A stretch of 64,000 bases of DNA from Eledone cirrhosa (Eukaryota): positions 14,446,001 through 14,510,000 of the forward strand of contig OZ024756.1 in assembly GCA_964016885.1 (NCBI GenBank). Direction: 5' to 3'. Positions 2,791-63,531 of the stretch are shown here, one piece after another. How positions within the stretch are numbered: position 1 is the first letter of the stretch; the number at the start of each line of letters is the position of its first letter. The notes under the pieces were generated by a model, which saw nothing but the letters and a program-made list of their open reading frames with translations, was not told where the DNA came from and did not search any database. Both the position numbers and the translations under genes were made by a program.

Positions 2791-3231
2791 GTGGAGGCAC
2801 ATGGCTTAGTGGTTAGAGCATTGGGCTTGCAATCGAAAGGTTGTGAGTTCAATTCTCAGACCGGATGATGTGTTGTTTCCTTGAGCAAGACACTTTATTT
2901 CACATTGCTCCAGTTTACTCAGCTGTAGAAATGATATGATAGGGACTGGGGTCCCTATCATTCCACTGTAAGGAGGTGCCATGGCAAAAAAGCACCCAGC
3001 ACTCACTGTAAATGAGGTTGGTGTTAGGAAGGGCATCCAGCTGTAAAAATCAAGCCAAAATCAGTTCCCGTATGAGCAAGACAAGGTCACCCGACCTAAC
3101 ATTGCCCACAACAGGACAACCCGTCTAACCCATGCTAGCGTGGAAGAATGGACGTAAAATGATGATGATGATGATGACATACATACATATATGTGTTAGC
3201 AGAAGTAAAAGGTAAATATGTAGAGGCTTAC

Positions 3232-3654: not shown

Positions 3655-6060
3655 CATCATCATCATCATCATCATCGTTTAACGTCCGTGTTCCACGCTT
3701 GCATGGGTTTGGACGGGGGTTTTCCCACTTGAGGCAAGAGTGATTTGTCTTGCTCGCATAGGACTGTCTGGCAGGTTTTCTACAGTTGGATGCCCTTCCT
3801 AACACCAACCACATTTACAGTGTGGGGCTGGGAGGTTTTTACCGTGTTGCCTACACGGCCACATTACAGCGTGGACTGTGTGTTTTTTGTCGTGACACCT
3901 ACACGATCTCATTTGTTTCGGCCTGGATGGTATGGCACCAACATAACTTTACATAGGAGGGGGTGGTGTGGATGGGGTGGGGGTGGTGGGACGGGGGGTG
4001 TATTTTGTTAGAGATGCCTACTGGCTGTAGTAGGTTTTACTATGTATTTAGGTAAGACGGGTCTTCTCTATTACTGAGTACCGCCAAAGGTCTCGGTCCA
4101 GTGACATTGTCTTGGAGAGGTGTAAGTGTGTGAGGTCGGAGTTTATCAGCTCGTCCCAGGATTTTCTAGGTCTGCCTATTCCGTGGCTACCGTCTATCTT
4201 TATTGCCCTGCACTTTGTTATACAGCTATCGACTTTCATGCGTAGCCTTCTCTCGAGTAAACAACATCTGATCCCTCTTATTTCTAATTTTTTCCTTAGT
4301 TCGTTTATGCTTTGCCGTTCACGTATATTACTATTACACATCCAGCGGAGCATGCAAGCTTCGTTCCTCTCTAGTCTGCATATATCCTCTGCACACAATG
4401 CCCAGGTCTCACTGCCATGCAACATTACTGTTCGTATGCAGGCATCATACAACCTGCCTTTCATTTTTAGGGAGAACCCTTTAGCGGCTAATAGTGGTAT
4501 AAGCTCTCTGAACTTTTTCCATCCAGTTCTGACTCTAGCTACTGTACTTTCAGAGCACCCTCCCCCACTGCTGATTTTGTCACCCAGGTAACGGAAGCTG
4601 TCCACTATTTCTATAGAGCCCTCTGCGCAGTTGTAAGAGCTAGTATTTTGTGGGCACTTGCTGCTACTTATTGCACCAGAGCACCGCCCACATGTAAAAT
4701 CTATGTTCTTAGTTAGCTTACCTGTGATCCCACTACATCTTTTATGCACCCATACTTTGCATTTGGGACATAAAATGGAGTTTCTACCTACGCCTTTCCT
4801 ACACACTGAGCATGGCCATTTCCCGGAAGGGACCGCCGCCTTATTTTCTTTCCTACAAACTAGAACTTTAGTCTTAGCCAGGTTAATTTTAAGGCCTTTT
4901 GATTCTAGGCCGTGCTTCCATGTTTGGAATTTCTTCTCTAGCTCGGCCATTGATTCAGCTATGAGTGTCAGGTCGTCTGCGTATAGGAGTTGCCATGGGC
5001 AGCCGGTCTTGAACTCCTCTGTTATAGCCTGAAGGGCAATAATAAATAGTAGGGGGCTGAGAACAGAGCCCTGATGGACGCCAACTTTTACGCTAAACTC
5101 TTCACTATATTCGTTGTTAATTCTAACCTTGCTGACTGTTTCTTTATACATGGCTTGTATAGCTCTCACAAGCCATTCGTCGACACCTAGTTTTCTAAGG
5201 GCCCACCAGATAATGGAACGAGGGACTCTGTCGAAGGCTTTCTCCAAGTCAACAAAAGCTAAGTAGAGGGGTTTACCTTTAGCTAGGTACTTCTCCTGTA
5301 GTTGACGTACAATGAAAAGAGCGTCTGTGGTACTTTTGCCTGACACAAACCCGAACTGCATTTCATCTAGGTCAATTCTCTCTCTGATTAGTTGCGCTAT
5401 TACTTTTTCCGTGACCTTCATGACCTGGTCGATTAATTTAATGTCTCTATAGTTACTCCTATCTAGGGCATCTCCTTTACCCTTATAACAGTTAACGATG
5501 ATGCTGCTATGCCAGTCCTTCGGAACAACCCCATTCTGTACGACTTGGTTAACTATCCGGGTGACCATAGTGTGTCCCACCGTGCCAGATGCCTTCAGCA
5601 TCTCAGCAACTATTTCCGAAGGCCCAGCCGCCTTACCCGTCATCATATCCTTGATTGCCTTACTTATTATACTACCCTCGACTAACACTGCTGGTCCCTC
5701 TATTGGGTCGATGTGGGGGAGACTGTCTTTCTCCCATTTATTCTCCTCATTTAGTAGCCTTTCATAGTGACACTTCCAAGCTACCTTCTTATCAGCGTCG
5801 GTGATGGCAAGTACGCCGTCAACATTAAGTACACACTTCTCCCCGACAATATCACGGTTTTCCTTGACACATTGCCTAGCAATCCTGAACACCTCACGTT
5901 TTTGGTCCTCGCGTTGTAGAACATGCTTGAACTTTCTTTCCTCTGCTTCCCTTCTTGCGAAGTACACTTGTCTCCTAGCTTCCCTCCTGGCCACTTGATA
6001 GTCTTCTCTACTTCCCCCATCCCGCCATACTTTCCAAGCCTTAATTGACCCCTCCACCTT
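3655..6060 (-). mobile_element. 5'-truncated RTE LINE: 669-codon RT ORF (4048-6057), 3' UTR and (ATG)n tail
   Basis: RT motifs QFGF, AFVDLEKAFDRV, GVHQGSVLSPLLF, YADD, FRYLG; Cys-rich insert; no endonuclease domain present. Confidence 0.95.
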
Positions 6061-6855
6061 ACTATATATGTGTGTTTGTGTGTGTGAGTCCTGGGTTCAA
6101 TCGGGCGTAACCACAGTAAGTAAGGTACTCAATACATTAGTAGAGTATATACAGAATCTAATATAGAAATGACACTTCTACAGGACTAGAACCTTCACTC
6201 AAGTCCTGATGATTTCTTTTGAATGAAACAGCTCTAGTCCTGTAGTCGTGGCACCTCCACGACCACTTTACAGTGGGAGGGGGGGGAGGCATATTGTCTA
6301 TATGCTTCAGCTTCGGCTTGTACCCGTAGGGGGGGTTGAGTCTTCTGTATTACTGCGTGACACAGTGACTGATCGGCCTGATTTGCATATTAGCTGATCC
6401 ACTGATCCAGGCCGATCAGTCACTGTGTATTTTTGAAAATATCATATATTTTCACTAGCTCTGACAGATTGGCAGGTGAACAGTGAGCTGTACTGATGAA
6501 CATTAGAGTCTGTAGTTCTGTTCACATGCCAACAGCAAGAATGAAGTGTTCATTCTACTGACATGGCTATAAAATTGAGGCTTGTTTGCATAATTGAAAA
6601 CGAATCGAATGTTATTAATATTCTAAAAATTCAGATTACATTTATTGTATTCAGACATGTAGAGCAAACATTTTCTGTTTTACAATATACATATATATAT
6701 ATATATACATATATATATACATATATATATACATATATATATACAGAGTCGGATCAGATCGATACAGATCGAACCTTGAGCTGATCAGTGGCGAAACGCG
6801 CGTCACCAACCAATAATTGTAATGAAGGAGTAACCAATCGTCCTTGTTATTTTAT

Positions 6856-20674: not shown

Positions 20675-23600
20675 GTCAGTAAGGTATGGTTGGCATTAGG
20701 AGAAACTAGCTGTGTTAGTAAGGTAGGGGTTGGCATTAGAAAGGGCAGCTGGCTGTGTTAGTAAGGTAGGGGTTGGCATCAGGAAAGGCAACTGGCTGTG
20801 TTAGTAAGGTAGGGGTTGGCATCAGGAAAGGCAACTGGCTGTGTTAGTAAGGTAGGGGTTGGCATCAGGAAGGGCAGCTGGCTGTGTTAGTAAGGTAGGG
20901 GTTGGCATCAGGAAGGGCAGCTAGCTGTGTTAGTAAGGTAGGGGTTGGCATCAGGAAGGGCAGCTGGCTGTGTTAGTAAGGTAGGGGTTGGCATCAGGAA
21001 AGGCAACTGGCTGTGTTAGTAAGGTAGGGGTTGGCATCAGGAAGGGCAGCTGGCTGTGTTAGTAAGGTAGGGGTTGGCATCAGGAAGGGCAGCTGGCTGT
21101 GTTAGTAAGGAAGGGCAGCTAGCTGTGTTAGTAAGGTAGGGGTTGGCATCAGGAAGGGCAACTGGCTGTGTTAGTAAGGTAGGGGTTGGCATTAGAAAGG
21201 GCAGCTGGCTGTGTTAGTAAGGTAGGGGTTGGCATCAGGAAGGGCAGCTGGCTGTGTTAGTAAGGTAAGGGTTGGCATCAGGAAGGGCAACTGGCTGTGT
21301 TAGTAAGGTAGGGGTTGGCATCAGGAAAGGCAACTGGCTGTGTTAGTAAGGTAGGGGTTGGTATCAGGAAGGGCAGCTGGCCGTGTTTACTAAGGTAGGG
21401 GTTGGCATCAGGAAGGGCAACTGGCTGTGTTAGTAAGGTAGGGGTTGGCATCAGGAAGGGCAACTGGCTGTGTTAGTAAGGTAAGGGTTGGCATCAGGAA
21501 GGGCAGCTGGCTGTGTTAGTAAGGTAAGGGTTGGCATCAGGAAGGGCAGCTGGCTGTGTTAGTAAGGTAAGGGGTTGGCATCAGGAAGGGCAACTGGCTG
21601 TGTTAGTAAGGTAGGGGTTGGCATCAGGAAGGGCAACTGGCTGTGTTAGTAAGGTAAGGGTTGGCATCAGGAAGGGCAACTGGCTGTGTTAGTAAGGTAA
21701 GGGTTGGCATCAGGAAGGGCAGCTGGCTGTGTTAGTAAGGTAGGGGTTGGCATCAGGAAGGGCAACTGGCTGTGTTAGTAAGGTAGGGGTTGGTATCAGG
21801 AAGGGCAGCTGGCTGTGTTAGTAAGGTAGGGGTTGGCATCAGGAAGGGCAGCTGGCTGTGTTAGTAAGGTAAGGGTTGGCATCAGGAAGGGCAGCTGGCT
21901 GTGTTAGTAAGGTAAGGGTTGGCATCAGGAAGGGCAGCTGGCTGTGTTAGTAAGGTAGGGGTTGGCATCAGGAAGGGCAACTGGCTGTGTTAGTAAGGTA
22001 AGGGTTGGCATCAGGAAGGGCAGCTGGCTGTGTTAGTAAGGTAAGGGTTGGCATCAGGAAGGGCAGCTGGCTGTGTTAGTAAGGTAGGGGTTGGCATCAG
22101 GAAGGGCAACTGGCTGTGTTAGTAAGGTAAGGGTTGGCATCAGGAAGGGCAGCTGGCTGTGTTAGTAAGGTAAGGGTTGGCATCAGGAAGGGCAGCTGGC
22201 TGTGTTAGTAAGGTAGGGGTTGGCATCAGGAAGGGCAACTGGCTGTGTTAGTAAGGTAAGGGTTGGCATCAGGAAGGGCAGCTGGCTGTGTTAGTAAGGT
22301 AAGGGTTGGCATCAGGAAGGGCAGCTGGCTGTGTTAGTAAGGTAGGGGTTGGCATCAGGAAGGGCAACTGGCTGTGTTAGTAAGGTAGGGGTTGGCATCA
22401 GGAAGGGCAACTGGCTGTGTTAGTAAGGTAGGGGTTGGCATCAGGAAGGGCAACTGGCTGTGTTAGTAAGGTAAGGGTTGGCATCAGGAAGGGCAGCTGG
22501 CTGTGTTAGTAAGGTAGGGGTTGGCATCAGGAAGGGCAACTGGCTGTGTTAGTAAGGTAAGGGTTGGCATCAGGAAGGGCAGCTGGCTGTGTTAGTAAGG
22601 TAGGGGTTGGCATCAGGAAGGGCAACTGGCTGTGTTAGTAAGGTAAGGGTTGGCATCAGGAAGGGCAGCTGGCTGTGTTAGTAAGGTAAGGGTTGGCATC
22701 AGGAAGGGCAACTGGCTGTGTTAGTAAGGTAGGGGTTGGCATCAGGAAGGGCAGCTGGCTGTGTTAGTAAGGTAAGGGTTGGCATCAGGAAGGGCAGCTG
22801 GCTGTGTTAGTAAGGTAGGGGTTGGCATCAGGAAGGGCAACTGGCTGTGTTAGTAAGGTAAGGGTTGGCATCAGGAAGGGCAGCTGGCTGTGTTAGTAAG
22901 GTAGGGGTTGGCATCAGGAAGGGCAGCTGGCTGTGTTAGTAAGGTAAGGGTTGGCATCAGGAAGGGCAGCTGGCTGTGTTAGTAAGGTAGGGGTTGGCAT
23001 CAGGAAGGGCAACTGGCTGTGTTAGTAAGGTAGGGGTTGGCATCAGGAAGGGCAACTGGCTGTGTTAGTAAGGTAAGGGTTGGCATCAGGAAGGGCAGCT
23101 GGCTGTGTTAGTAAGGTAGGGGTTGGCATCAGGAAGGGCAACTGGCTGTGTTAGTAAGGTAAGGGTTGGCATCAGGAAGGGCAGCTGGCTGTGTTAGTAA
23201 GGTAGGGGTTGGCATCAGGAAGGGCAACTGGCTGTGTTAGTAAGGTAAGGGTTGGCATCAGGAAGGGCAGCTGGCTGTGTTAGTAAGGTAAGGGTTGGCA
23301 TCAGGAAGGGCAACTGGCTGTGTTAGTAAGGTAGGGGTTGGCATCAGGAAGGGCAGCTGGCTGTGTTAGTAAGGTAAGGGTTGGCATCAGGAAGGGCAGC
23401 TGGCTGTGTTAGTAAGGTAGGGGTTGGCATCAGGAAGGGCAACTGGCTGTGTTAGTAAGGTAAGGGTTGGCATCAGGAAGGGCAGCTGGCTGTGTTAGTA
23501 AGGTAGGGGTTGGCATCAGGAAGGGCAGCTGGCTGTGTTAGTAAGGTAAGGGTTGGCATCAGGAAGGGCAGCTGGCTGTGTTAGTAAGGTAGGGGTTGGC

Positions 23601-26600
23601 ATCAGGAAGGGCAACTGGCTGTGTTAGTAAGGTAAGGGTTGGCATCAGGAAGGGCAGCTGGCTGTGTTAGTAAGGTAGGGGTTGGCATCAGGAAGGGCAG
23701 CTGGCTGTGTTAGTAAGGTAAGGGTTGGCATCAGGAAGGGCAGCTGGCTGTGTTAGTAAGGTAGGGGTTGGCATCAGGAAGGGCAGCTGGCTGTGTTAGT
23801 AAGGTAGGGGTTGGCATCAGGAAGGGCAGCTGGCTGTGTTAGTAAGGTAAGGGTTGGCATCAGGAAGGGCAGCTGGCTGTGTTAGTAAGGTAGGGGTTGG
23901 CATCAGGAAGGGCAACTGGCTGTGTTAGTAAGGTAAGGGTTGGCATCAGGAAGGGCAGCTGGCTGTGTTAGTAAGGTAGGGGTTGGCATCAGGAAGGGCA
24001 GCTGGCTGTGTTAGTAAGGTAAGGGTTGGCATCAGGAAGGGCAGCTGGCTGTGTTAGTAAGGTAAGGGTTGGCATCAGGAAGGGCAACTGGCTGTGTTAG
24101 TAAGGTAAGGGTTGGCATCAGGAAGGGCAGCTGGCTGTGTTAGTAAGGTAGGGGTTGGCATCAGGAAGGGCAGCTGGCTGTGTTAGTAAGGTAAGGGTTG
24201 GCATCAGGAAGGGCAGCTGGCTGTGTTAGTAAGGTAAGGGTTGGCATCAGGAAGGGCAGCTGGCTGTGTTAGTAAGGTAGGGGTTGGCATCAGGAAGGGC
24301 AACTGGCTGTGTTAGTAAGGTAAGGGTTGGCATCAGGAAGGGCAGCTGGCTGTGTTAGTAAGGTAAGGGTTGGCATCAGGAAGGGCAGCTGGCTGTGTTA
24401 GTAAGGTAAGGGTTGGCATCAGGAAGGGCAGCTGGCTGTGTTAGTAAGGTAAGGGTTGGCATCAGGAAGGGCAGCTGGCTGTGTTAGTAAGGTAAGGGTT
24501 GGCATCAGGAAGGGCAACTGGCTGTGTTAGTAAGGTAAGGGTTGGCATCAGGAAGGGCAACTGGCTGTGTTAGTAAGGTAAGGGTTGGCATCAGGAAGGG
24601 CAGCTGGCTGTGTTAGTAAGGTAAGGGTTGGCATCAGGAAGGGCAACTGGCTGTGTTAGTAAGGTAAGGGTTGGCATCAGGAAGGGCAACTGGCTGTGTT
24701 AGTAAGGTAAGGGTTGGCATCAGGAAGGGCAGCTGGCTGTGTTAGTAAGGTAAGGGTTGGCATCAGGAAGGGCAGCTGGCTGTGTTAGTAAGGTAAGGGT
24801 TGGCATCAGGAAGGGCAGCTGGCTGTGTTAGTAAGGTAGGGGTTGGCATCAGGAAGGGCAGCTGGCTGTGTTAGTAAGGTAAGGGTTGGCATCAGGAAGG
24901 GCAGCTGGCTGTGTTAGTAAGGTAAGGGTTGGCATCAGGAAGGGCAGCTGGCTGTGTTAGTAAGGTAGGGGTTGGCATCAGGAAGGGCAACTGGCTGTGT
25001 TAGTAAGGTAAGGGTTGGCATCAGGAAGGGCAGCTGGCTGTGTTAGTAAGGTAAGGGTTGGCATCAGGAAGGGCAGCTGGCTGTGTTAGTAAGGTAAGGG
25101 TTGGCATCAGGAAGGGCAGCTGGCTGTGTTAGTAAGGTAAGGGTTGGCATCAGGAAGGGCAGCTGGCTGTGTTAGTAAGGTAAGGGTTGGCATCAGGAAG
25201 GGCAACTGGCTGTGTTAGTAAGGTAAGGGTTGGCATCAGGAAGGGCAACTGGCTGTGTTAGTAAGGTAAGGGTTGGCATCAGGAAGGGCAGCTGGCTGTG
25301 TTAGTAAGGTAAGGGTTGGCATCAGGAAGGGCAGCTGGCTGTGTTAGTAAGGTAAGGGTTGGCATCAGGAAGGGCAACTGGCTGTGTTAGTAAGGTAAGG
25401 GTTGGCATCAGGAAGGGCAACTGGCTGTGTTAGTAAGGTAAGGGTTGGCATCAGGAAGGGCAGCTGGCTGTGTTAGTAAGGTAAGGGTTGGCATCAGGAA
25501 GGGCAACTGGCTGTGTTAGTAAGGTAAGGGTTGGCATCAGGAAGGGCAACTGGCTGTGTTAGTAAGGTAAGGGTTGGCATCAGGAAGGGCAGCTGGCTGT
25601 GTTAGTAAGGTAAGGGTTGGCATCAGGAAGGGCAGCTGGCTGTGTTAGTAAGGTAAGGGTTGGCATCAGGAAGGGCAACTGGCTGTGTTAGTAAGGTAAG
25701 GGTTGGCATCAGGAAGGGCAACTGGCTGTGTTAGTAAGGTAAGGGTTGGCATCAGGAAGGGCAACTGGCTGTGTTAGTAAGGTAAGGGTTGGCATCAGGA
25801 AGGGCAGCTGGCTGTGTTAGTAAGGTAAGGGTTGGCATCAGGAAGGGCAACTGGCTGTGTTAGTAAGGTAAGGGTTGGCATCAGGAAGGGCAACTGGCTG
25901 TGTTAGTAAGGTAAGGGTTGGCATCAGGAAGGGCAGCTGGCTGTGTTAGTAAGGTAAGGGTTGGCATCAGGAAGGGCAACTGGCTGTGTTAGTAAGGTAA
26001 GGGTTGGCATCAGGAAGGGCAACTGGCTGTGTTAGTAAGGTAAGGGTTGGCATCAGGAAGGGCAGCTGGCTGTGTTAGTAAGGTAAGGGTTGGCATCAGG
26101 AAGGGCAACTGGCTGTGTTAGTAAGGTAAGGGTTGGCATCAGGAAGGGCAGCTGGCTGTGTTAGTAAGGTAAGGGTTGGCATCAGGAAGGGCAGCTGGCT
26201 GTGTTAGTAAGGTAAGGGTTGGCATCAGGAAGGGCAGCTGGCTGTGTTAGTAAGGTAAGGGTTGGCATCAGGAAGGGCAGCTGGCTGTGTTAGTAAGGTA
26301 AGGGTTGGCATCAGGAAGGGCAACTGGCTGTGTTAGTAAGGTAAGGGTTGGCATCAGGAAGGGCAGCTGGCTGTGTTAGTAAGGTAAGGGTTGGCATCAG
26401 GAAGGGCAGCTGGCTGTGTTAGTAAGGTAAGGGTTGGCATCAGGAAGGGCAGCTGGCTGTGTTAGTAAGGTAAGGGTTGGCATCAGGAAGGGCAGCTGGC
26501 TGTGTTAGTAAGGTAAGGGTTGGCATCAGGAAGGGCAGCTGGCTGTGTTAGTAAGGTAAGGGTTGGCATCAGGAAGGGCAACTGGCTGTGTTAGTAAGGT

Positions 26601-29600
26601 AAGGGTTGGCATCAGGAAGGGCAGCTGGCTGTGTTAGTAAGGTAAGGGTTGGCATCAGGAAGGGCAACTGGCTGTGTTAGTAAGGTAAGGGTTGGCATCA
26701 GGAAGGGCAGCTGGCTGTGTTAGTAAGGTAGGGGTTGGCATCAGGAAGGGCAGCTGGCTGTGTTAGTAAGGTAAGGGTTGGCATCAGGAAGGGCAACTGG
26801 CTGTGTTAGTAAGGTAAGGGTTGGCATCAGGAAGGGCAGCTGGCTGTGTTAGTAAGGTAAGGGTTGGCATCAGGAAGGGCAACTGGCTGTGTTAGTAAGG
26901 TAAGGGTTGGCATCAGGAAGGGCAACTGGCTGTGTTAGTAAGGTAAGGGTTGGCATCAGGAAGGGCAACTGGCTGTGTTAGTAAGGTAAGGGTTGGCATC
27001 AGGAAGGGCAGCTGGCTGTGTTAGTAAGGTAGGGGTTGGCATCAGGAAGGGCAACTGGCTGTGTTAGTAAGGTAAGGGTTGGCATCAGGAAGGGCAGCTG
27101 GCTGTGTTAGTAAGGTAAGGGTTGGCATCAGGAAGGGCAGCTGGCTGTGTTAGTAAGGTAGGGGTTGGCATCAGGAAGGGCAACTGGCTGTGTTAGTAAG
27201 GTAAGGGTTGGCATCAGGAAGGGCAACTGGCTGTGTTAGTAAGGTAGGGGTTGGCATCAGGAAGGGCAACTGGCTGTGTTAGTAAGGTAGGGGTTGGCAT
27301 CAGGAAGGGCAGCTGGCTGTGTTAGTAAGGTAGGGGTTGGAATTAGGAAGGGCAACTGGCTGTGTTAGTAAGGTAGGGGCTGGTATCAGGAAGGGCAGCT
27401 GGCTGTGTTAGTAAGGTAGGGGTTGGCATCAGGAAGGGCAGCTGGCTGTGTTAGTAAGGTAGGGGTTGGAATTAGGAAGGGCAACTGGCTGTGTTAGTAA
27501 GGTAGGGGTTGGCATCAGGAAGGGCAACTGGCTGTGTTAGTAAGGTAGGGGTTGGCATCAGGAAGGGCAACTGGCTGTGTTAGTAAGGTAGGGGTTGGCA
27601 TCAGGAAGGGCAACTGGCTGTGTTAGTAAGGTAGGGGTTGGCATCAGGAAGGGCAGCTGGCTGTGTTAGTAAGGTAGGGGTTGGAATTAGGAAGGGCAAC
27701 TGGCTGTGTTAGTAAGGTAAGGGTTGGCATCAGGAAGGGCAGCTGGCTGTGTTAGTAAGGTAGGGGTTGGTATCAGGAAGGGCAGCTGGCTGTGTTAGTA
27801 AGGTAGGGGTTGGAATTAGGAAGGGCAACTGGCTGTGTTAGTAAGGTAAGGGTTGGCATCAGGAAGGGCAACTGGCTGTGTTAGTAAGGTAGGGGTTGGC
27901 ATCAGGAAGGGCAACTGGCTGTGTTAGTAAGGTAGGGGTTGGCATCAGGAAGGGCAACTGGCTGTGTTAGTAAGGTAAGGGTTGGCATCAGGAAAGGCAA
28001 CTGGCTGTGTTAGTAAGGTAGGGGTTGGCATCAGGAAGGGCAACTGGCTGTGTTAGTAAGGTAGGGGTTGGAATTAGGAAGGGCAACTGGCTGTGTTAGT
28101 AAGGTAGGGGCTGGTATCAGGAAGGGCAGCTGGCTGTGTTAGTAAGGTAGGGGTTGGCATCAGGAAGAGCAGCTGGCTGTGTTAGTAAGGTAGGGGTTGG
28201 TATCAGGAAGGGCAGCTGGCTGTGTTAGTAAGGTAGGGGTTGGAATTAGGAAGGGCAACTGGCTGTGTTAGTAAGGTAAGGGTTGGCATCAGGAAGGGCA
28301 GCTGGCTGTGTTAGTAAGGTAGGGGTTGGCATCAGGAAGGGCAACTGGCTGTGTTAGTAAGGTAGGGGTTGGCATCAGGAAGGGCAACTGGCTGTGTTAG
28401 TAAGGTAGGGGTTGGCATCAGGAAGGGCAGCTGGCTGTGTTAGTAAGGTAGGGGTTGGAATTAGGAAGGGCAACTGGCTGTGTTAGTAAGGTAAGGGTTG
28501 GCATCAGGAAAGGCAACTGGCTGTGTTAGTAAGGTAGGGGTTGGAATTAGGAAGGGCAACTGGCTGTGTTAGTAAGGTAAGGGTTGGCATCAGGAAAGGC
28601 AACTGGCTGTGTTAGTAAGGTAGGGGTTGGTATCAGGAAGGGCAGCTGGCTGTGTTAGTAAGGTAGGGGTTGGAATTAGGAAGGGCAACTGGCTGTGTTA
28701 GTAAGGTAAGGGTTGGCATCAGGAAAGGCAACTGGCTGTGTTAGTAAGGTAGGGGTTGGCATCAGGAAGGGCAACTGGCTGTGTTAGTAAGGTAGGGGTT
28801 GGCATCAGGAAGGGCAGCTGGCTGTGTTAGTAAGGTAGGGGTTGGCATCAGGAAGGGCAGCTGGCTGTGTTAGTAAGGTAAGGGTTGGCATCAGGAAGGG
28901 CAACTGGCTGTGTTAGTAAGGTAGGGGTTGGAATTAGGAAGGGCAACTGGCTGTGTTAGTAAGGTAGGGGTTGGAATTAGGAAGGGCAACTGGCTGTGTT
29001 AGTAAGGTAGGGGTTGGCATCAGGAAAGGCAACTGGCTGTGTTAGTAAGGTAGGGGTTGGAATTAGGAAGGGCAACTGGCTGTGTTAGTAAGGTAGGGGT
29101 TGGAATTAGGAAGGGCAACTGGCTGTGTTAGTAAGGTAGGGGCTGGTATCAGGAAGGGCAGCTGGCTGTGTTAGTAAGGTAGGGGTTGGCATCAGGAAGG
29201 GCAACTGGCTGTGTTAGTAAGGTAGGGGTTGGAATTAGGAAGGGCAACTGGCTGTGTTAGTAAGGTAGGGGCTGGTATCAGGAAGGGCAGCTGGCTGTGT
29301 TAGTAAGGTAGGGGTTGGCATCAGGAAGGGCAGCTGGCTGTGTTAGTAAGGTAGGGGTTGGCATCAGGAAGGGCAACTGGCTGTGTTAGTAAGGTAGGGG
29401 TTGGAATTAGGAAGGGCAACTGGCTGTGTTAGTAAGGTAGGGGCTGGTATCAGGAAGGGCAGCTGGCTGTGTTAGTAAGGTAGGGGTTGGCATCAGGAAG
29501 GGCAGCTGGCTGTGTTAGTAAGGAAGGGCAACTGGCTGTGTTAGTAAGGTAGGGGCTGGTATCAGGAAGGGCAGCTGGCTGTGTTAGTAAGGTAGGGGTT

Positions 29601-29875
29601 GGCATCAGGAAGGGCAGCTGGCTGTGTTAGTAAGGTAGGGCAACTGGCTGTGTTAGTAAGGTAGGGGTTGGTATCAGGAAGGGCAGCTGGCCGTGTTTAC
29701 TAAGGTAGGGGTTGGCATCAGGAAGGGCAGCTGGCTGTGTTAGTAAGGTAGGGGTGGGCATCAGGAAGGGCAGCTGGCTGTGTTACTAAGGTAGGGGTTG
29801 GCATCAGGAAGGGCAACTGGCTGTGTTAGTAAGGTAGGGGTTGGCATCAGGAAGGGCAACTGGCTGTGTTAGTAA
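20675..29875. repeat. 43-bp minisatellite, about 210 copies
   Basis: Unit GTTAGTAAGGTA(G/A)GGGTTGGCATCAGGAAGGGCA(G/A)CTGGCTGT. Confidence 0.98.
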
Positions 29876-29927
29876 GAGAACTACCAAACAGGGATAGCAA
29901 TGAAATAAACATGTTATGTTTACTTAC

Positions 29928-39267: not shown

Positions 39268-39338
<71 letters not shown>

Positions 39339-39408
39339 ACAGATTCGAAACACTCGACAGATTTTCTGGAGTATAATATCAATGATATTAATAAATGGAA
39401 ATTATATT

Positions 39409-39469
39409 TATTCTATTATATATATTTCAAGGGTACCAAAACTTTGGTACGCTCTCATCAGATAAAATA
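39409..39469 (-). ncRNA. Type I hammerhead motif (left arm of foldback)
   Basis: Reverse complement of 39596-39656. Confidence 0.8.
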
Positions 39470-39595
39470 CAAAATTTGTTTTATAAATAGTGACATACCC
39501 TGGAATCAGACCTTAATGGTTCAGATTATCCAGATGGAACTTGAACCGTTAAAGTCTGATACCTGGGTATGTCACTATTTATAAAACAAATTTTG

Positions 39596-39656
39596 TATTT
39601 TATCTGATGAGAGCGTACCAAAGTTTTGGTACCCTTGAAATATATATAATAGAATA
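39596..39656 (+). ncRNA. Type I hammerhead motif (right arm of foldback)
   Basis: TATTTTAT-CTGATGA-GAGCGTACCAAA GT TTTGGTACCCTT-GAAA-TATATA-TA-ATAGAATA, overlapping AATAAA. Confidence 0.82.
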
Positions 39657-39961
39657 AATATGGTTTTTATAAATATAGTTTCCATTTATTAATATCATTT
39701 ATATATATATATTTATATATATAGACATATCTCAGTAACTGAAGATATAAAGCCAACATATCCTATTGCAAGTGTGTATCATATATGACACATTTTAAGG
39801 CAATTTAGCTTAATTAAAGCAGTGGTTACACTTCATCAAAGGTTTGTGGGTCCCATCATCTGTTTTAAGGAAATACTGTACATCTGTCTGCCTTTCCTTG
39901 TGTCAACCCTTTTAGTTACCCCATGCAACACCCTGTGAAAGCTGTCAATAACTTCTAGTGC

Positions 39962-43467: not shown

Positions 43468-44336
43468 TCATCATCATCATCGTTTAACGTCCATGTTTCA
43501 CGCTTGCATGGGTTTGGACGGGAGTTTTCCCACTTCAGGCAAGAGTGGTTGTCTTGCTCGCATAGGACTGTCTGGCGGGTTTTCTACAGCTGGATTCCCT
43601 TCCTAACACCAACCACATTTACAGTGTGGGGCTGGGAGGTTTTTACCGTGTTGCCTACACGGCCACATTACAGCGTGGACTGTCTGGCGGGTTTTCTACA
43701 GCTGGATGCCCTTCCTAACACCAACCACATTTACAGTGTGGGGCTGGGAGGTTTTTACCGTGTTGCCTACACGGCCACATTACAGCGTGGACTGTCTGGC
43801 GGGTTTTCTACAGCTGGATGCCCTTCCTAACACCAACCACATTTACAGTGTGGGGCTGGGAGGTTTTTACCGTGTTGCCTACACGGCCACATTACAGCGT
43901 GGACTGTGTGTTTTTTTGTCGTGACACCTACACGATCTCATTTGTTTCAGCCTGGATGTTGTGGCACCAACATAACTTTACATTGAAAGGGGCGGTGTGG
44001 ATGGGGTGGGGGTGGTGGGACGGGGGTGTATTTTGTTAGAGATGCCTACTGACTGTAGTAGGTTTTACTTTGTATTTAGGTAAGGCGGGTCTTCTCTATT
44101 ACTGAGTACCGCCAAAGATCTCGGTCCAGTGACATTGTCTTGGAGGTGTAAATGTGTGAGGTCGGAATTTATCAGGTCGTCCCAGGTTTTTCTGGTTCTG
44201 CCTACTCCGTGGCTACCGTCTATCTTTATTGCCCTGCACTTTGTTATACAGCTGTCGTCTTTCATGCGCATCACGTGACCATACCAACGTAGCCTTCTCT
44301 CGAGTAAACAACATCTGATCCCTCTTATTTCTAATT
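43468..44336 (-). mobile_element. RTE LINE 3' end, same family; 112-bp unit triplicated in the UTR
   Basis: Near-identical to 3655-4290; 5' end abuts (TA)n. Confidence 0.9.
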
Positions 44337-44340
44337 TATA

Positions 44341-44371
<31 letters not shown>

Positions 44372-44386
44372 GCATATATATATATC

Positions 44387-44914
44387 AATATATATGATAA
44401 ACACAAAACGTGTTTGTATTGTAACAGACAAAGTTAGCTAGCATGAAATAAACTAATTAAAGTGAATACAATTTGTCTGTCTCGATATAAGTCAATAAAG
44501 ACAAGCTTATATTGGCAAAAGCTGTGATTCCTGGACAAATTTAAATTTCAAAATCCAAACCCGCTCCGTAGATGAATTTGAACTTCGAAACCCAAATATG
44601 TTTCGCAACGATGGGTTTCGAAGTTCAAATTCATCTACGGAGCAGGTTTGGATTTTGAAATTTAAATTTGTCCAGGAATCACAGCTTTTGCCAATATAAG
44701 CTTGTCTTTATTGACTTATATCGAGACAGACAAATTGTATTCACTTTAATTAGTTTATTTCAAGCTAGCTAACTTTGTCTGTTACAATACAAACATGTTT
44801 TGTGTTTATCATATATATTAATATATAACTTGTATTTCACTGCTCGGAAATGCCTCTTTCTTTGAGCTGATTAATTGTAAACGACTATGAGTTTAATCTC
44901 TAAATATAATATAG

Positions 44915-47817: not shown

Positions 47818-48810
47818 ATCATCATCATCATCAGGTTTAGCGTCCGTGTTCCACGCTTGCATGGGTTTGGACGGGGGTTTTCTAGTTGGATGCCCTTCCT
47901 AACACCAACCACATTTACAGTGTGGGGCTGGGAGGTTTTTACCGTGTTGCCTACACGGCCACATTACAGCGTGGACTGTCTGGCGGGTTTTCTACAGCTG
48001 GATGCCCTTCCTAACACCAACCACATTTACAGTGTGGGGATGGGAGGTTTTTACCGTGTTGCCTACACGGCCACATTTACAGCGTGGACTGTGTGTTTTT
48101 TGTCGTGACACCTACACGATCTCATTTGTTTCGGCCTGGATGTTGTGGGACCAACATAACTTTACATTGAAAGGGGCGGTGTGGGTGGGGTGGAGGTGGT
48201 GGGACGGGGGTGTGTTTTGATAGAGATGCCTACTGACTGTAGTAGGTTTTTACTTTGTATTTAGGTAAGGCGGGTCTTCTCTATTACTGAGTACCGCCAA
48301 AGGTCTCGGTCCAGTGACATTGTCTTGGAGAGGTGTAAGCGTGTGAGGTCGGAATTTATCAGCTCGTCCCATGTTTTTCTGGGTCTGCCTACTCCGTGGC
48401 TACCGTCTATCTTTATTGCCCTGCACTTTGTTATACAGCTGTCGTCTTTCATGCGCATCACGTGACCGTACCAACGTAGCCTTCTCTCGAGTAAACAACA
48501 TCTGATCCCTCTTATTTCTAATTTTTTCCTTAGTTCGTTTATGCTTTGCCGTTCACGTATATTACTATTGCACATCCAGCGGAGCATGCAAGCTTCGTTC
48601 CTCTCTAGTCTGCGTATATCCTCTGCACACAATGCCCAGGTCTCACTGCCATGCAGCATTGCTGTTCGTATGCAGGCATCGTATAACCTGCCTTTCATTT
48701 TTAGGGAGAACCCTCTAGCGGCTAATAGTGGTATAAGCTCTCTGAACTTTTTCCATCCAGTTCTGACTCTAGCTACTGTACTTTCAGAGCACCCTCCTCC
48801 ACTGCTAATT
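47818..48810 (-). mobile_element. RTE LINE 3' end, same family
   Basis: ORF 48261-48810 is nearly identical to the C-terminus of the 4048-6057 ORF; 5' end at (TA)n. Confidence 0.9.
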
Positions 48811-48817
48811 CTTTTTT

Positions 48818-48879
<62 letters not shown>

Positions 48880-48959
48880 CATCCTGTTGAGGGTCTTTGC
48901 CACAAGTGACGTCAGTGAGATCCCCCTGTAGTTGTTGGTGTTAGAGAGATCTCCCTTCT

Positions 48960-52920: not shown

Positions 52921-53209
52921 ACCACCACCGTCACTACCACCATCATCAATATCCCCATTAATATCACCATTCCTTCTAGTATAAACATAAACAAAAACAA
53001 ACAACTCTCTATATATATTTACACACACACACACATATATATATACATATATATATATATATACATATATCTTCTAGGGCGGGTAAAATTTCCAAGATCC
53101 ATGGACGAGTTCTCTCCAGCGATCTCTGTCCCTCATTATCGCTGCCAGATAATATATATATATATCAATGATATTAATAAATGGAAACTATATTTATAAA
53201 AACCATATT

Positions 53210-53269
53210 TATTCTATTATATATATTTCAAGGGTACCAACATTTGGTACGCTCTCATCAGATAAAATA
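53210..53269 (-). ncRNA. Type I hammerhead motif (same family as 39409/39596)
   Basis: Same core and stems; differs only in the stem II loop. Confidence 0.8.
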
Positions 53270-53742
53270 CAAAGTTTTTTTAATAAATATTGACATATCC
53301 AGGAACGAGATCTTAACGGTTCAAGTTTTTCCTGGATAGGAAATATCCTTTGCTTATATATATATATATATATATATACATACAGGTAAATTTTACTATT
53401 ACACCCGGTCCCGAGACAGGTGTAAAAGTAACAAAAAAGATTATAGGTTTAGTTAGAATTTTGAAGATTTGAGTTTTTTTTTGTTTTAAACGACAACGGC
53501 TTTCACAAGTGTTGTAAATTATTGGTTTGCAGTAGTTTCCTCATCCGTTAATTCCATAACACACGCCTCGGAAACAGATGGAATAATTTAAAAAACAACC
53601 TAGAATAATCCTCCCACAATACCAACCCACCTTTAATAGAAAAAAAACCAAAACAAACTCCAAGAACAGAGAATCAGAAATATATATATATATATAAATG
53701 AAAGGTATAGAAAACACTGCAGCGAAAAGCCAACAGCACTCC

Positions 53743-55189: not shown

Positions 55190-56500
55190 ATCATGACAGA
55201 CTCTTTTACACCTCCTTCCCTCCTGACCCCTCTCGTCTTCTCTTTACCCTGGACATCACCTTTCTCTATACCGTCAACCCTCATGATGACGGCCTCCCCG
55301 CTCTCCGATACTTTTTAGATTTACGCGCTACCTCTTACCCCAGCACGACCACTCTCCTCCATTTGGCTGAGCTTGTTTTGACCCTCAATTGGTTTTCCTT
55401 TTCCGGTGAATTCTATCAGCAGGTCTCTGGGGGGTAGCGATGGGAACCAGAATGGGTCCAAACTATGCCAACTTGTTTGTTAGCTACGTCGAAGCCCAGA
55501 TCTTCTGCCAGTACGCTAGACCTACTCCTGAGCTATACGGTCGTTATATCGACGACTGTATCGGCGCCACCTCTCTATCACGAGAACAGCTCGACTAATT
55601 GCTATCTTTTGTTCAATATTTTCATCCTGCTCTCACCTTCACTACCTCCGTCTCCGATTCTTCTCTCCCCTTTCTAGATATCTCTCTATCTATATCACTC
55701 TCACCACACCCTCTCTACTTCCATCTTCTATAAACCGATTGACTCCCACTCTTAACTCGACTTCACCTCCTCCGATCCAACTCACACCAAACACTCCTTA
55801 TTCTACTCCCAATTCCTCCGTCTTCGTCGGCTCTATAACCAGGACCACGATTTCGAAACCCATTCCCTTCACATGGTCTCCCGCTTCATCCAGCGTGGAT
55901 ATCCCCCACCCTGATCCAAGCTGCTCTCATCCGCGCCCGTGAAACCGACCGTACCATATCCCTCTCACTTCACCAGCGCCCTCCCAACACCCACCTTCCT
56001 TTCCCTCTCACCCACCACCTCACTCACACTATCACCCTACCTCTCCGTTCCTTCCGCACCCTCTCTTCTGACCCCGTCACTTCTCGCTTTTTTCCTACCC
56101 CACCTATCACCGTATTTAAGCGCGCCCGTAACCTCCGCGACCCCGCTCTAACACTTATCCTTTCATTTCCAACCTCATCACTCTCATAGGCTCCAACAGT
56201 TCATTCCCTATCCGCCACTCCTTCACCCACGTTTGTCTATGCCCTCCGGTCTGCCCTTTGCGGGTCTTTATACATCGGACAAACAGGACGCTGTTTGGTG
56301 AACCATTTTGCTGAACATTTGAGGGATATACGACTCGGTTTGGATACTCCCGTCGACCGTCATTTCCGTTCTCCAGGTCACTCTTCCCTACATGTCTCAG
56401 TCCTGGGTGTCCTTTTACAACACGGATCACAGGCCTCGAGCACCATGACTGAACAGAGTCTGATTTACCGCCTCGGGTCCTGTTTCCCCTCAACTCCCCT
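55190..56500 (+). mobile_element. Decayed Penelope-like element (RT + GIY-YIG endonuclease)
   Basis: LLFTLDITFLYT, ELVLTLNWFSFSGEFYQQVSG, AMGTRMGPNYANLF, RYIDDC, LPFLDI; then LYIGQTGR.LVNHFAEHLRDIR...PVDRHF...EQSLIYRLG. Confidence 0.88.
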
Positions 56501-57119
56501 CCCCCCAATTTATTTAATATTACACATATACGTTCGTACTTACTTCTCTACCCTTTGCCCCGTCACGTTTACCCCGTCAGTTATCACACACATGCTTATA
56601 CATTCACCCCTAGATTCCTAAGGCTCTCTTATGGTCAGAAACATATGCTCGTACAGATGATACAGACCAACAAAATACGCATATACACCTCTACTTTTCC
56701 CTTCACACCTCTGTATACACACATACACTCCCTGTATACACACATACACTCCCTTATATTAACATACTTTTGCTGACAACGTCGTACTTACAAGCACACA
56801 CACACACTCTCTCTCTTTTACTTACATACACACACACATATCCTCTTAGCTTCGTACGGACGTATAACACACACACGCGCGCGCACACGTATAACTCTAT
56901 ATACAAAACGTTTTTTTTTTTTCCTATTTCAGGTAGACGCTCTCTATCATCCACTTTTCTAAAAAAAAAAGTATATCATACACAAACCACCAGCATCAAC
57001 AGTTTTCCAAGAGATGGCAACATGAATGGATCTGTTATTTTTTTTCTAACAACATTTTTCCGATTCCGCCCCGCCCGTCTTTTCAATCTTTCTAATTTCT
57101 CATTCTTTCTTCCGAAACG

Positions 57120-60413: not shown

Positions 60414-60705
60414 AAAGGATAACAAGGACGATATATATATATAGTAATAATAATAAATTTGAAGACTAAAATCCACTGAGGGCTCGATAAGGATAAATAT
60501 ATGTCAAATATATAAGAACCGTAGAGCAAATATTTATTAAAATAACAGATAAAAGTTTAAGCAAAGAATCGCTGCTTGCACCCTTAACGGTGAAAGCAGC
60601 GATTCTTTGCTTAAACTTTAATCTGTTATTTTAATAAATATATATATATATGTCCCAAGGCTCTGATACCATCAACACTATAAACACAGAGCTGGCATAT
60701 CTAAG

Positions 60706-60761
60706 ACTGCCTGATGAGGTCATAGCCATTCAATGGCTATCATCGAAATATATATAGCAGT
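60706..60761 (+). ncRNA. Type I hammerhead motif
   Basis: ACTGC-CTGATGA-GGTCATAGCCATT C AATGGCTATCATC-GAAA-TATATA-TA-GCAGT, then AATAAA. Confidence 0.83.
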
Positions 60762-63476: not shown

Positions 63477-63531
63477 ACTGCCTGAAGAGGTCACAGCCAA
63501 AGATGGCTGTCACTGAAATATATATAGCAGT
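63477..63531 (+). ncRNA. Type I hammerhead motif (relative of 60706)
   Basis: ACTGC-CTGAAGA-GGTCACAGCCA AAGA TGGCTGTCACT-GAAA-TATATA-TA-GCAGT-AATAAA; compensatory stem II change relative to 60706. Confidence 0.83.

Follow-up and report, generated by a model that had tools for sequence, protein, structure and literature searches.

Back-to-back hammerhead motifs in Eledone cirrhosa as the two arms of one Penelope-like insertion, probably made by twin priming

Results

A locus with two outward arms

In the window, which is the whole stretch of 64,000 nucleotides of Eledone cirrhosa DNA analysed here, two hammerhead motifs lie back to back on opposite strands between positions 39,271 and 39,723. 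We consider it probable that they belong to one short insertion of a Hydra-clade Penelope-like element (PLE), whose two outward arms, each with a hammerhead motif, were made by twin priming. The locus is not a double ribozyme: judged by its sequence, each arm is a 5'-truncated pLTR of such a retrotransposon. Its parts, and those of a second insertion in the window, are given below, with offsets counted from the core nucleotide C3 of the hammerhead, set to 0.

39271-39338, no strand: (TA)n target tract at the 3' junction of the left arm, 34 repeat copies
39335-39524, reverse strand: left arm, a 5'-truncated pLTR from -63, with hammerhead, 15-nt deletion and about 45-47 nt of the 88-nt tail
39339-39376, reverse strand: small hairpin with a bulge, where the tail begins, some nucleotides past the short end (-7.0 kcal/mol, z -2.25)
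39409-39469, reverse strand: left type I hammerhead motif, core C3 at 39461, predicted cut after 39417 (H17)
39525-39699, forward strand: right arm, pLTR that begins at the 5' wall (-79 or -77) and continues through the hammerhead to the short end (about +95)
39596-39656, forward strand: right type I hammerhead motif, predicted cut after 39648, from core, folds and covariation in related families
39700-39723, no strand: (TA)n-like tract at the 3' junction of the right arm
53166-53339, reverse strand: third copy, running from -78 to the short end, with its hammerhead core at 53261 and an (AT)n junction at 53152-53165
53341-53354, forward strand: inverted 14-nt tail tip (long end) of the third insertion, followed by (TA)n

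The original prediction placed identical 61-nt hammerheads on the two strands, with 3' ends pointing outward into (TA)n: alignment finds 39409-39469 (reverse) identical to 39596-39656 (forward), and a (TA)n tract at the 3' junction of each arm. It also gave the left arm an extra tail of about 45 nt. The extra nucleotides exist, and are about the first half of the 88-nt family tail, but a 15-nt deletion directly after the hammerhead had been overlooked. The left arm passes into the (TA)n tract near +143, at a TA-rich stretch of its own, and ends at neither of the two positions usual for the family, +96 and +184. Slippage into the tract has probably shortened what was a long arm. The right arm has the usual form of a short arm.

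The arms are identical over 103 nt, and both hammerhead cores are intact. The identity of the two 61-mers is unremarkable, because both equal the family majority base at every position. The arms differ by 3.0%, and 36 of 142 unrelated arms are closer; neither gene conversion nor selection is needed to explain them. The locus is thus not the "cleanest example" it had been called: in insertions L076, L079 and L176 the arm-to-arm difference is 0, and here the left arm carries a deletion and half a tail.

Since the motifs lie on opposite strands, any one transcript contains the motif once in sense and once as its complement. A read-through RNA over both arms is predicted to form a single hairpin of -212.7 kcal/mol in which the ribozyme is buried, so that the two motifs of the locus would be unable to act together in cis. 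The special "twin" device implied by the original prediction dissolves into an ordinary inverted-pLTR layout.

Other copies in the window and in the genome

A third copy, said to lie near 53160-53340 and to differ in the loop of stem II, does so (AUG vs AGUU) and keeps the core and stems. Its insertion is likewise two-armed, with a long arm that consists of tail only. Hammerheads of sister families, at 60711-60756 and 63482-63526 on the forward strand, keep the C.C mismatch and the stem III sequence AUAUAUAU and have other stems; both give good predicted folds (z -2.5 and -3.1). Just upstream of the first of these, a separate palindrome of ~110 nt, at about 60530-60645 between TA-rich tracts, probably represents the inverted ends of another Penelope-like family.

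The window also holds, at 4048-6096 (reverse), a 682-aa open frame with reverse-transcriptase motifs, which we take to be an RTE-like LINE, with fragments at 48261-48911 and 44065-44433. A GIY-YIG-like remnant at 56190-56621 (forward), with a YIG motif and nearby Cys/His, presumably belongs to another Penelope-like clade. A tandem array of 8.8 kb (21108-29876) contains 204 copies of a 43-bp G-rich unit with 95% matches, and a weak tRNA match at 2802-2859 (forward; 31.2 bits, gathering 29) is likely a SINE head.

In the 3.0-Gb genome, a 21-nt signature has 1,518 exact matches, and a pattern for the shared hammerhead architecture has 19,643; the controls, reversed in the case of the signature, have 0 in both cases, so the motif is not a product of chance. 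The matches listed for the shared-design pattern represent five or more sequence families; the window holds two of these, at 60711 and 63482. The first 100 listed exact matches all lie on contig C1; 22 of them make up 11 back-to-back pairs less than 1 kb apart, and the same hundred matches include no convergent or tandem (same-strand) pairs within 1 kb. The inverted partner carries a hammerhead in 23 of 87 scored rows, three of which duplicate others. A back-to-back hammerhead pair is ordinary for Penelope-like elements.

It is very improbable that the pair at 39,271-39,723 is a selected unit, whether a ribozyme cassette that works in both directions or a gene for a hairpin RNA that the host has retained. 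Such a unit would agree with the 103 nt of identity and the intact cores, and miRNA-precursor models of Rfam do match the fold-back; these matches are below threshold and reflect its shape. The arms, however, merely equal the family majority and differ to an unexceptional degree, pairs of this kind are common, and the predicted hairpin buries the ribozyme.

The parent element

Each of the two arms is a part of the pLTR of an element with reverse transcriptase (RT) and GIY-YIG endonuclease (EN) that is present in the E. cirrhosa genome. Copy L070 has the order inverted pLTR, pLTR with hammerhead, 88-nt tail, ATG near +229, ORF, 3' UTR, pLTR; its hammerheads are in sense with the ORF and 3,913 nt apart, a ~190-nt insertion included. 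The parent unit measures about 3.7-3.9 kb, of which the 3' UTR takes about 1.2 kb. With the upstream sequence alone as query, 25 of 30 loci have a hammerhead downstream on the same strand. An ORF antisense to the hammerhead, once suggested by an inverted piece in L002, is ruled out by these 25 loci and by the layout of L070.

The motifs YRDD, FLD and IYKC..YIG were read by eye in copies L063, L064, L065 and L070. L070 has DKT, L063 has HKT, and DKTNNLY occurs also in Hydra-1_Obim, an element that the N-terminal part of the parent tracks motif by motif, again by eye. The open stretches of L065 and L070, inspected in the same way, contain the CxCX5C linker and CxxC and CxH around E and N, with no CCHH. 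At the RWK position the two copies read have RRLRW followed by C or H (RWC/RWH), so that the motif is partly kept. Pfam has no hits for any of the four ORF pieces searched, and PDB none for the ORF pieces. The ORF copies examined are broken; among the related copies listed, open frames reach about 700-790 aa.

The Hydra clade is characterized by DKT, CxCX5C, CxxC and CxH, no CCHH, and (TA)n targets (PMC8557442 section 11), in elements that the same source calls "generally <3 kb", a typical and not a strict size. The parent is larger than that, and its copies are inserted in (TA)n; they have the inverted 5'-truncated pLTR and one-sided tail found in EN+ Penelope-like elements. On this comparison of motifs by eye, from which both the RT/EN identity and the clade placement derive, the parent would be a new family of Hydra-clade Penelope-like retrotransposon with a known layout. 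It is another family than Hydra-1_Obim, whose hammerhead differs.

The existence of an RT-bearing parent effectively refutes the idea that a near-palindrome in TA-rich DNA is a MITE or a fold-back DNA transposon with a chance hammerhead-like motif, an explanation to which we attach next to no credit: the outer ends of the arms differ, one short and one long, single-armed insertions are frequent, and the sequence runs on into the RT ORF.

The flanks of L063, L065, L069 and L008 hold other Penelope-like families, nested in or beside the copies, among them a second Hydra-like ORF, 43% identical over 153 aa.

The hammerhead motif

The right hammerhead has CUGAUGA at 39604, GAAA at 39637, and the triplet AUA with H17 at 39648. 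Stem I has 8 bp, stem II has 3 bp, a C.C mismatch and 7 bp, and stem III is a perfect self-complementary palindrome, AUAUAUAU. With the core CUGANGA, GAAA and UH arranged around three helices, the motif reads as a type I hammerhead. The cut was predicted after AUA at 39648, a position that the core motif and compensatory changes across related families both support.

Those changes come from an alignment of 11 hand-picked representatives of related families. The core (the same in 11 of 11 sequences), the C.C mismatch and stem III are invariant, and stems I and II covary: 12 of 19 pairs are changed on both sides, and 90.9% of the cells are paired, against 32-50% in slid controls. The covariation score was reached in 0 of 500 shuffles, a count that amounts to no probability, the sequences being related and hand-picked. 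Within the family, the core varies less than loop II, with 16/468 (3.4%) vs 12/164 (7.3%) (p = 0.047), a weak and little telling contrast in a biased sample whose AT-rich stems are equally quiet. This sample comprises 43 of 46 collected arms; of the 46, 17 had been chosen for lacking the exact 21-mer.

The most variable column of the family is position 10.2 (39612), with A 24, G 10, T 5, C 3 and gap 1 (n = 43), partly a sampling effect; it faces a nearly fixed U. Position 11.1 is U in the studied family, giving G10.1-U11.1, and C or U in the sister families.

The hammerhead fold of the monomer has an energy of -7.6 kcal/mol vs -12.0 for the MFE. That the active fold is not the predicted minimum is as expected for dimer-dependent PLE hammerheads of the kind described in PMC4209133, and we predict that the motif would cut only as a dimer or with the help of a protein. 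Copies on opposite strands cannot supply the dimer in cis. Rfam has no hammerhead family matching at the gathering score, nor at E<=10.

Two fixed 3' ends and the pairing of arms

The scoring covered 84 distinct insertions, obtained from the first 100 listed matches after one unfetched insertion and three segmental duplicates had been set aside; as exact 21-mer matches from one contig, they are biased to young copies. The family has two fixed 3' ends joined to (TA)n, short at +96 and long at +184, and the tail is the 88 nt between them. The junctions in the parent, TCATTG/ATAT for the short end and TTTGCT/TATA for the long one, each have a 4-nt TA microhomology. By eye, a small hairpin lies 7-8 nt past each end; the folds are weak, with z from 0.71 (L063) to the value listed above for the window copy.

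Two-armed insertions with both ends on site number 32: 30 are long+short, 2 are long+long and none is short+short (p=1.1e-7). These classes were curated by hand; an automatic procedure counts 27 long+short insertions, with false calls from TA-rich matches. The other 52 insertions are single-armed, have an end that is disrupted or off-site, or extend beyond the fetched DNA.

In 10 of the 30 long+short insertions, the long arm is tail only: it begins between +116 and +171 and has no sequence in common with the short arm, and therefore cannot be a fold-back copy of it. In 20 of the 30, the arms overlap widely. Arms of one insertion differ by 4.1% on average, vs 6.1% for the median unrelated arm; the sister arm is closer than the median unrelated arm in 25/30 and is the nearest arm of all in 4/30.

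At the ORF side of the same sites, the ORF-bearing copies L214, L220 and L227 begin at the long-end site (+181/+182), two of the three beside (AT)n, and L210 begins at +91, near the short end. The endonuclease may cut its own pLTR-ORF junction, or later insertions may land there.

The pairing bears directly on an explanation that keeps the same element but obtains the palindrome from fold-back self-priming of one cDNA, or from an antisense template, with the EN trimming the tail from one arm. Fold-back has been proposed for inverted junctions of PLEs (PMC3846280), and the tail has been ascribed to resolution by the EN (PMC8557442). The hairpin at -79..-36 provides microhomology at a few junctions (L084, L093, L161), and the three ORF copies that begin exactly at the long-end site look as if that site were cuttable at the DNA level. 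However, the 10 insertions with non-overlapping arms do not fit, and junctions are spread over many positions instead of being fixed at the hairpin. We hold this explanation to be unlikely for the family as a whole, and fold-back may contribute to the cases of overlapping arms.

A wall at the 5' side

Of the arms that extend at least to -62, 79 in number, 55 end no more than about 25 nt further upstream (-59 to -83 in a count that reads 1 too low), 6 end within the following ~160 nt, and 18 continue beyond -250; the 55 vs 6 supersede an earlier hand count of 57/60. Seven arms stop exactly at -79, the A of ACTATCC, and one of the 55, L156, looks like an internal deletion. The right arm of the window locus (-79 or -77) and the third copy (-78) sit at this wall. 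The ORF-bearing copies that reach -78 are divided: 2 of 4 stop at the wall (L204 and L236), L234 runs to -194 and L070 to about -449.

It is likely that -79 is the transcription start. The wall, however, coincides with the base of the predicted hairpin at -79..-36 (-14.3 kcal/mol in L186, z -0.13 in the window copy), so it need not be a start site. Two other ideas about the wall were rejected. A spliced intron, with polypyrimidine tract and CAG, fails since ends cluster 5' of AG, there is no common upstream exon, and one subfamily lacks the AG; an extra cap-derived G, seen at the wall in 4 of 7 cases, is in all four templatable by the partner arm.

The wall could also be the internal promoter of a self-propagating, non-autonomous mini-element, mobilised in trans, of which the short copies would be the members. 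Short copies do predominate, an internal pLTR promoter has been cited for Penelope (PMC8557442), and an Inr-like TCACT has been noted in pLTRs (PMC3846280). We find this improbable: long ends need the tail, which is located at the pLTR-ORF junction of the parent, and the sequence of the short arm is common to the ORF-linked copies.

A model by twin priming

The fixed end points likely mean that the two arms of a pair go back to two set start sites on a single uncut RNA. Under twin priming, the endonuclease would cut both strands of a (TA)n tract. The RNA would offer two internal sites past the hammerhead, downstream of it, and each cut end would prime reverse transcription at one of them. Copies span the predicted cut site at +44, and the template would be uncut or re-ligated RNA. 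Copying would run to or near the 5' end of the RNA at -79, the two cDNAs would be joined head to head, and the hammerhead would be a passenger of the pLTR. Against twin priming, the widely overlapping arms of 20/30 insertions would need strand displacement or two RNAs.

A more detailed version seems to us to have about an even chance: most short copies would be run-off cDNAs from the first ~175-265 nt of uncut RNA; the (TA)n ends would be assigned non-randomly, one to +96 and one to +184, by ordered twin priming and not by fold-back; and the genomic copies would show where transcription begins (-79) as well as the two positions at which RT starts.

The origin of the inverted repeats and tails of PLEs is named as an open question in PMC8557442 and PMC11167929. 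The rules on the ends make the copying mechanism testable, and the family statistics give predictions at the level of the base: an RNA 5' end at -79, RT starts at +96/+184, one per target strand, and a template uncut at +44. In addition, the roughly 20,000 motifs that share one hammerhead design, the C.C mismatch being invariant, form a natural series of variants for dimer-dependent cleavage. Among the papers listed in searches of the open literature, none on PLEs explains such insertions by twin priming or by a start-site wall.

Comparison with known systems

Inverted 5'-truncated copies with a one-sided tail have already been described in PLEs (PMC8557442, PMC3846280). The closest relatives are the Hydra-clade C-terminal EN+ elements of Craig et al. 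2021 (PMC8557442), such as Hydra-1_Obim and Penelope-13_HM, the latter listed with a hammerhead on both strands. As portrayed there, they share with our family DKT, CxCX5C, CxxC/CxH, (TA)n targeting, a sense type I hammerhead near the 3' end, and the inverted 5'-truncated copy with its one-sided tail. The tail, however, is 88 nt here vs 30-40 in those elements, and our family has a 3' UTR of about 1.2 kb, the stem III sequence AUAUAUAU and the C.C mismatch; a 12-nt signature is absent from the PMC8557442 supplement.

Dual hammerheads on opposite strands, about 100-700 bp apart, are reported from Schistosoma mansoni (Cervera and de la Pena 2014, PMC4209133). The minimal PLE hammerheads of that study have, like ours, a type I fold, a short palindromic helix III and predicted dimer activity; here stem I, at 8 bp, is longer, U occupies position 11.1, and activity is predicted. 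The metazoan non-LTR retrozymes (bioRxiv 10.64898/2026.07.22.740005; PMC7229834) also have a type I hammerhead and are PLE-related, but they are head-to-tail tandem units, whereas the locus consists of inverted truncated pLTRs of a coding element. A non-LTR retrozyme was rejected as the identity of the locus on two grounds: 0 same-strand pairs within 1 kb among the first 100 listed matches, and the link to an ORF.

In the twin priming of L1, reportedly described by Ostertag and Kazazian in 2001, two target ends are said to prime one RNA, at the poly(A) and at a variable internal site, leaving a head-to-head inversion joined by microhomology, with arms that do not overlap. In our family, by contrast, both sites are fixed and the arms often overlap.

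The nearest parallel to the copying proposed here is Poseidon_Ac (Frangieh et al. 2024, PMC11167929), in which RT starts at two internal sites, cleavage and extension take place on both target strands, and the template is mainly uncut RNA. As proposed for our family, two RT starts downstream of the hammerhead define the tail, and the target is AT-rich; the sites of Poseidon_Ac are inside the ORF, whereas here both precede the ATG (+229). The available portion of that paper reports neither a one-long-one-short rule nor a 5' wall. The twin-priming model fits the in vitro behaviour of the Poseidon element described there.
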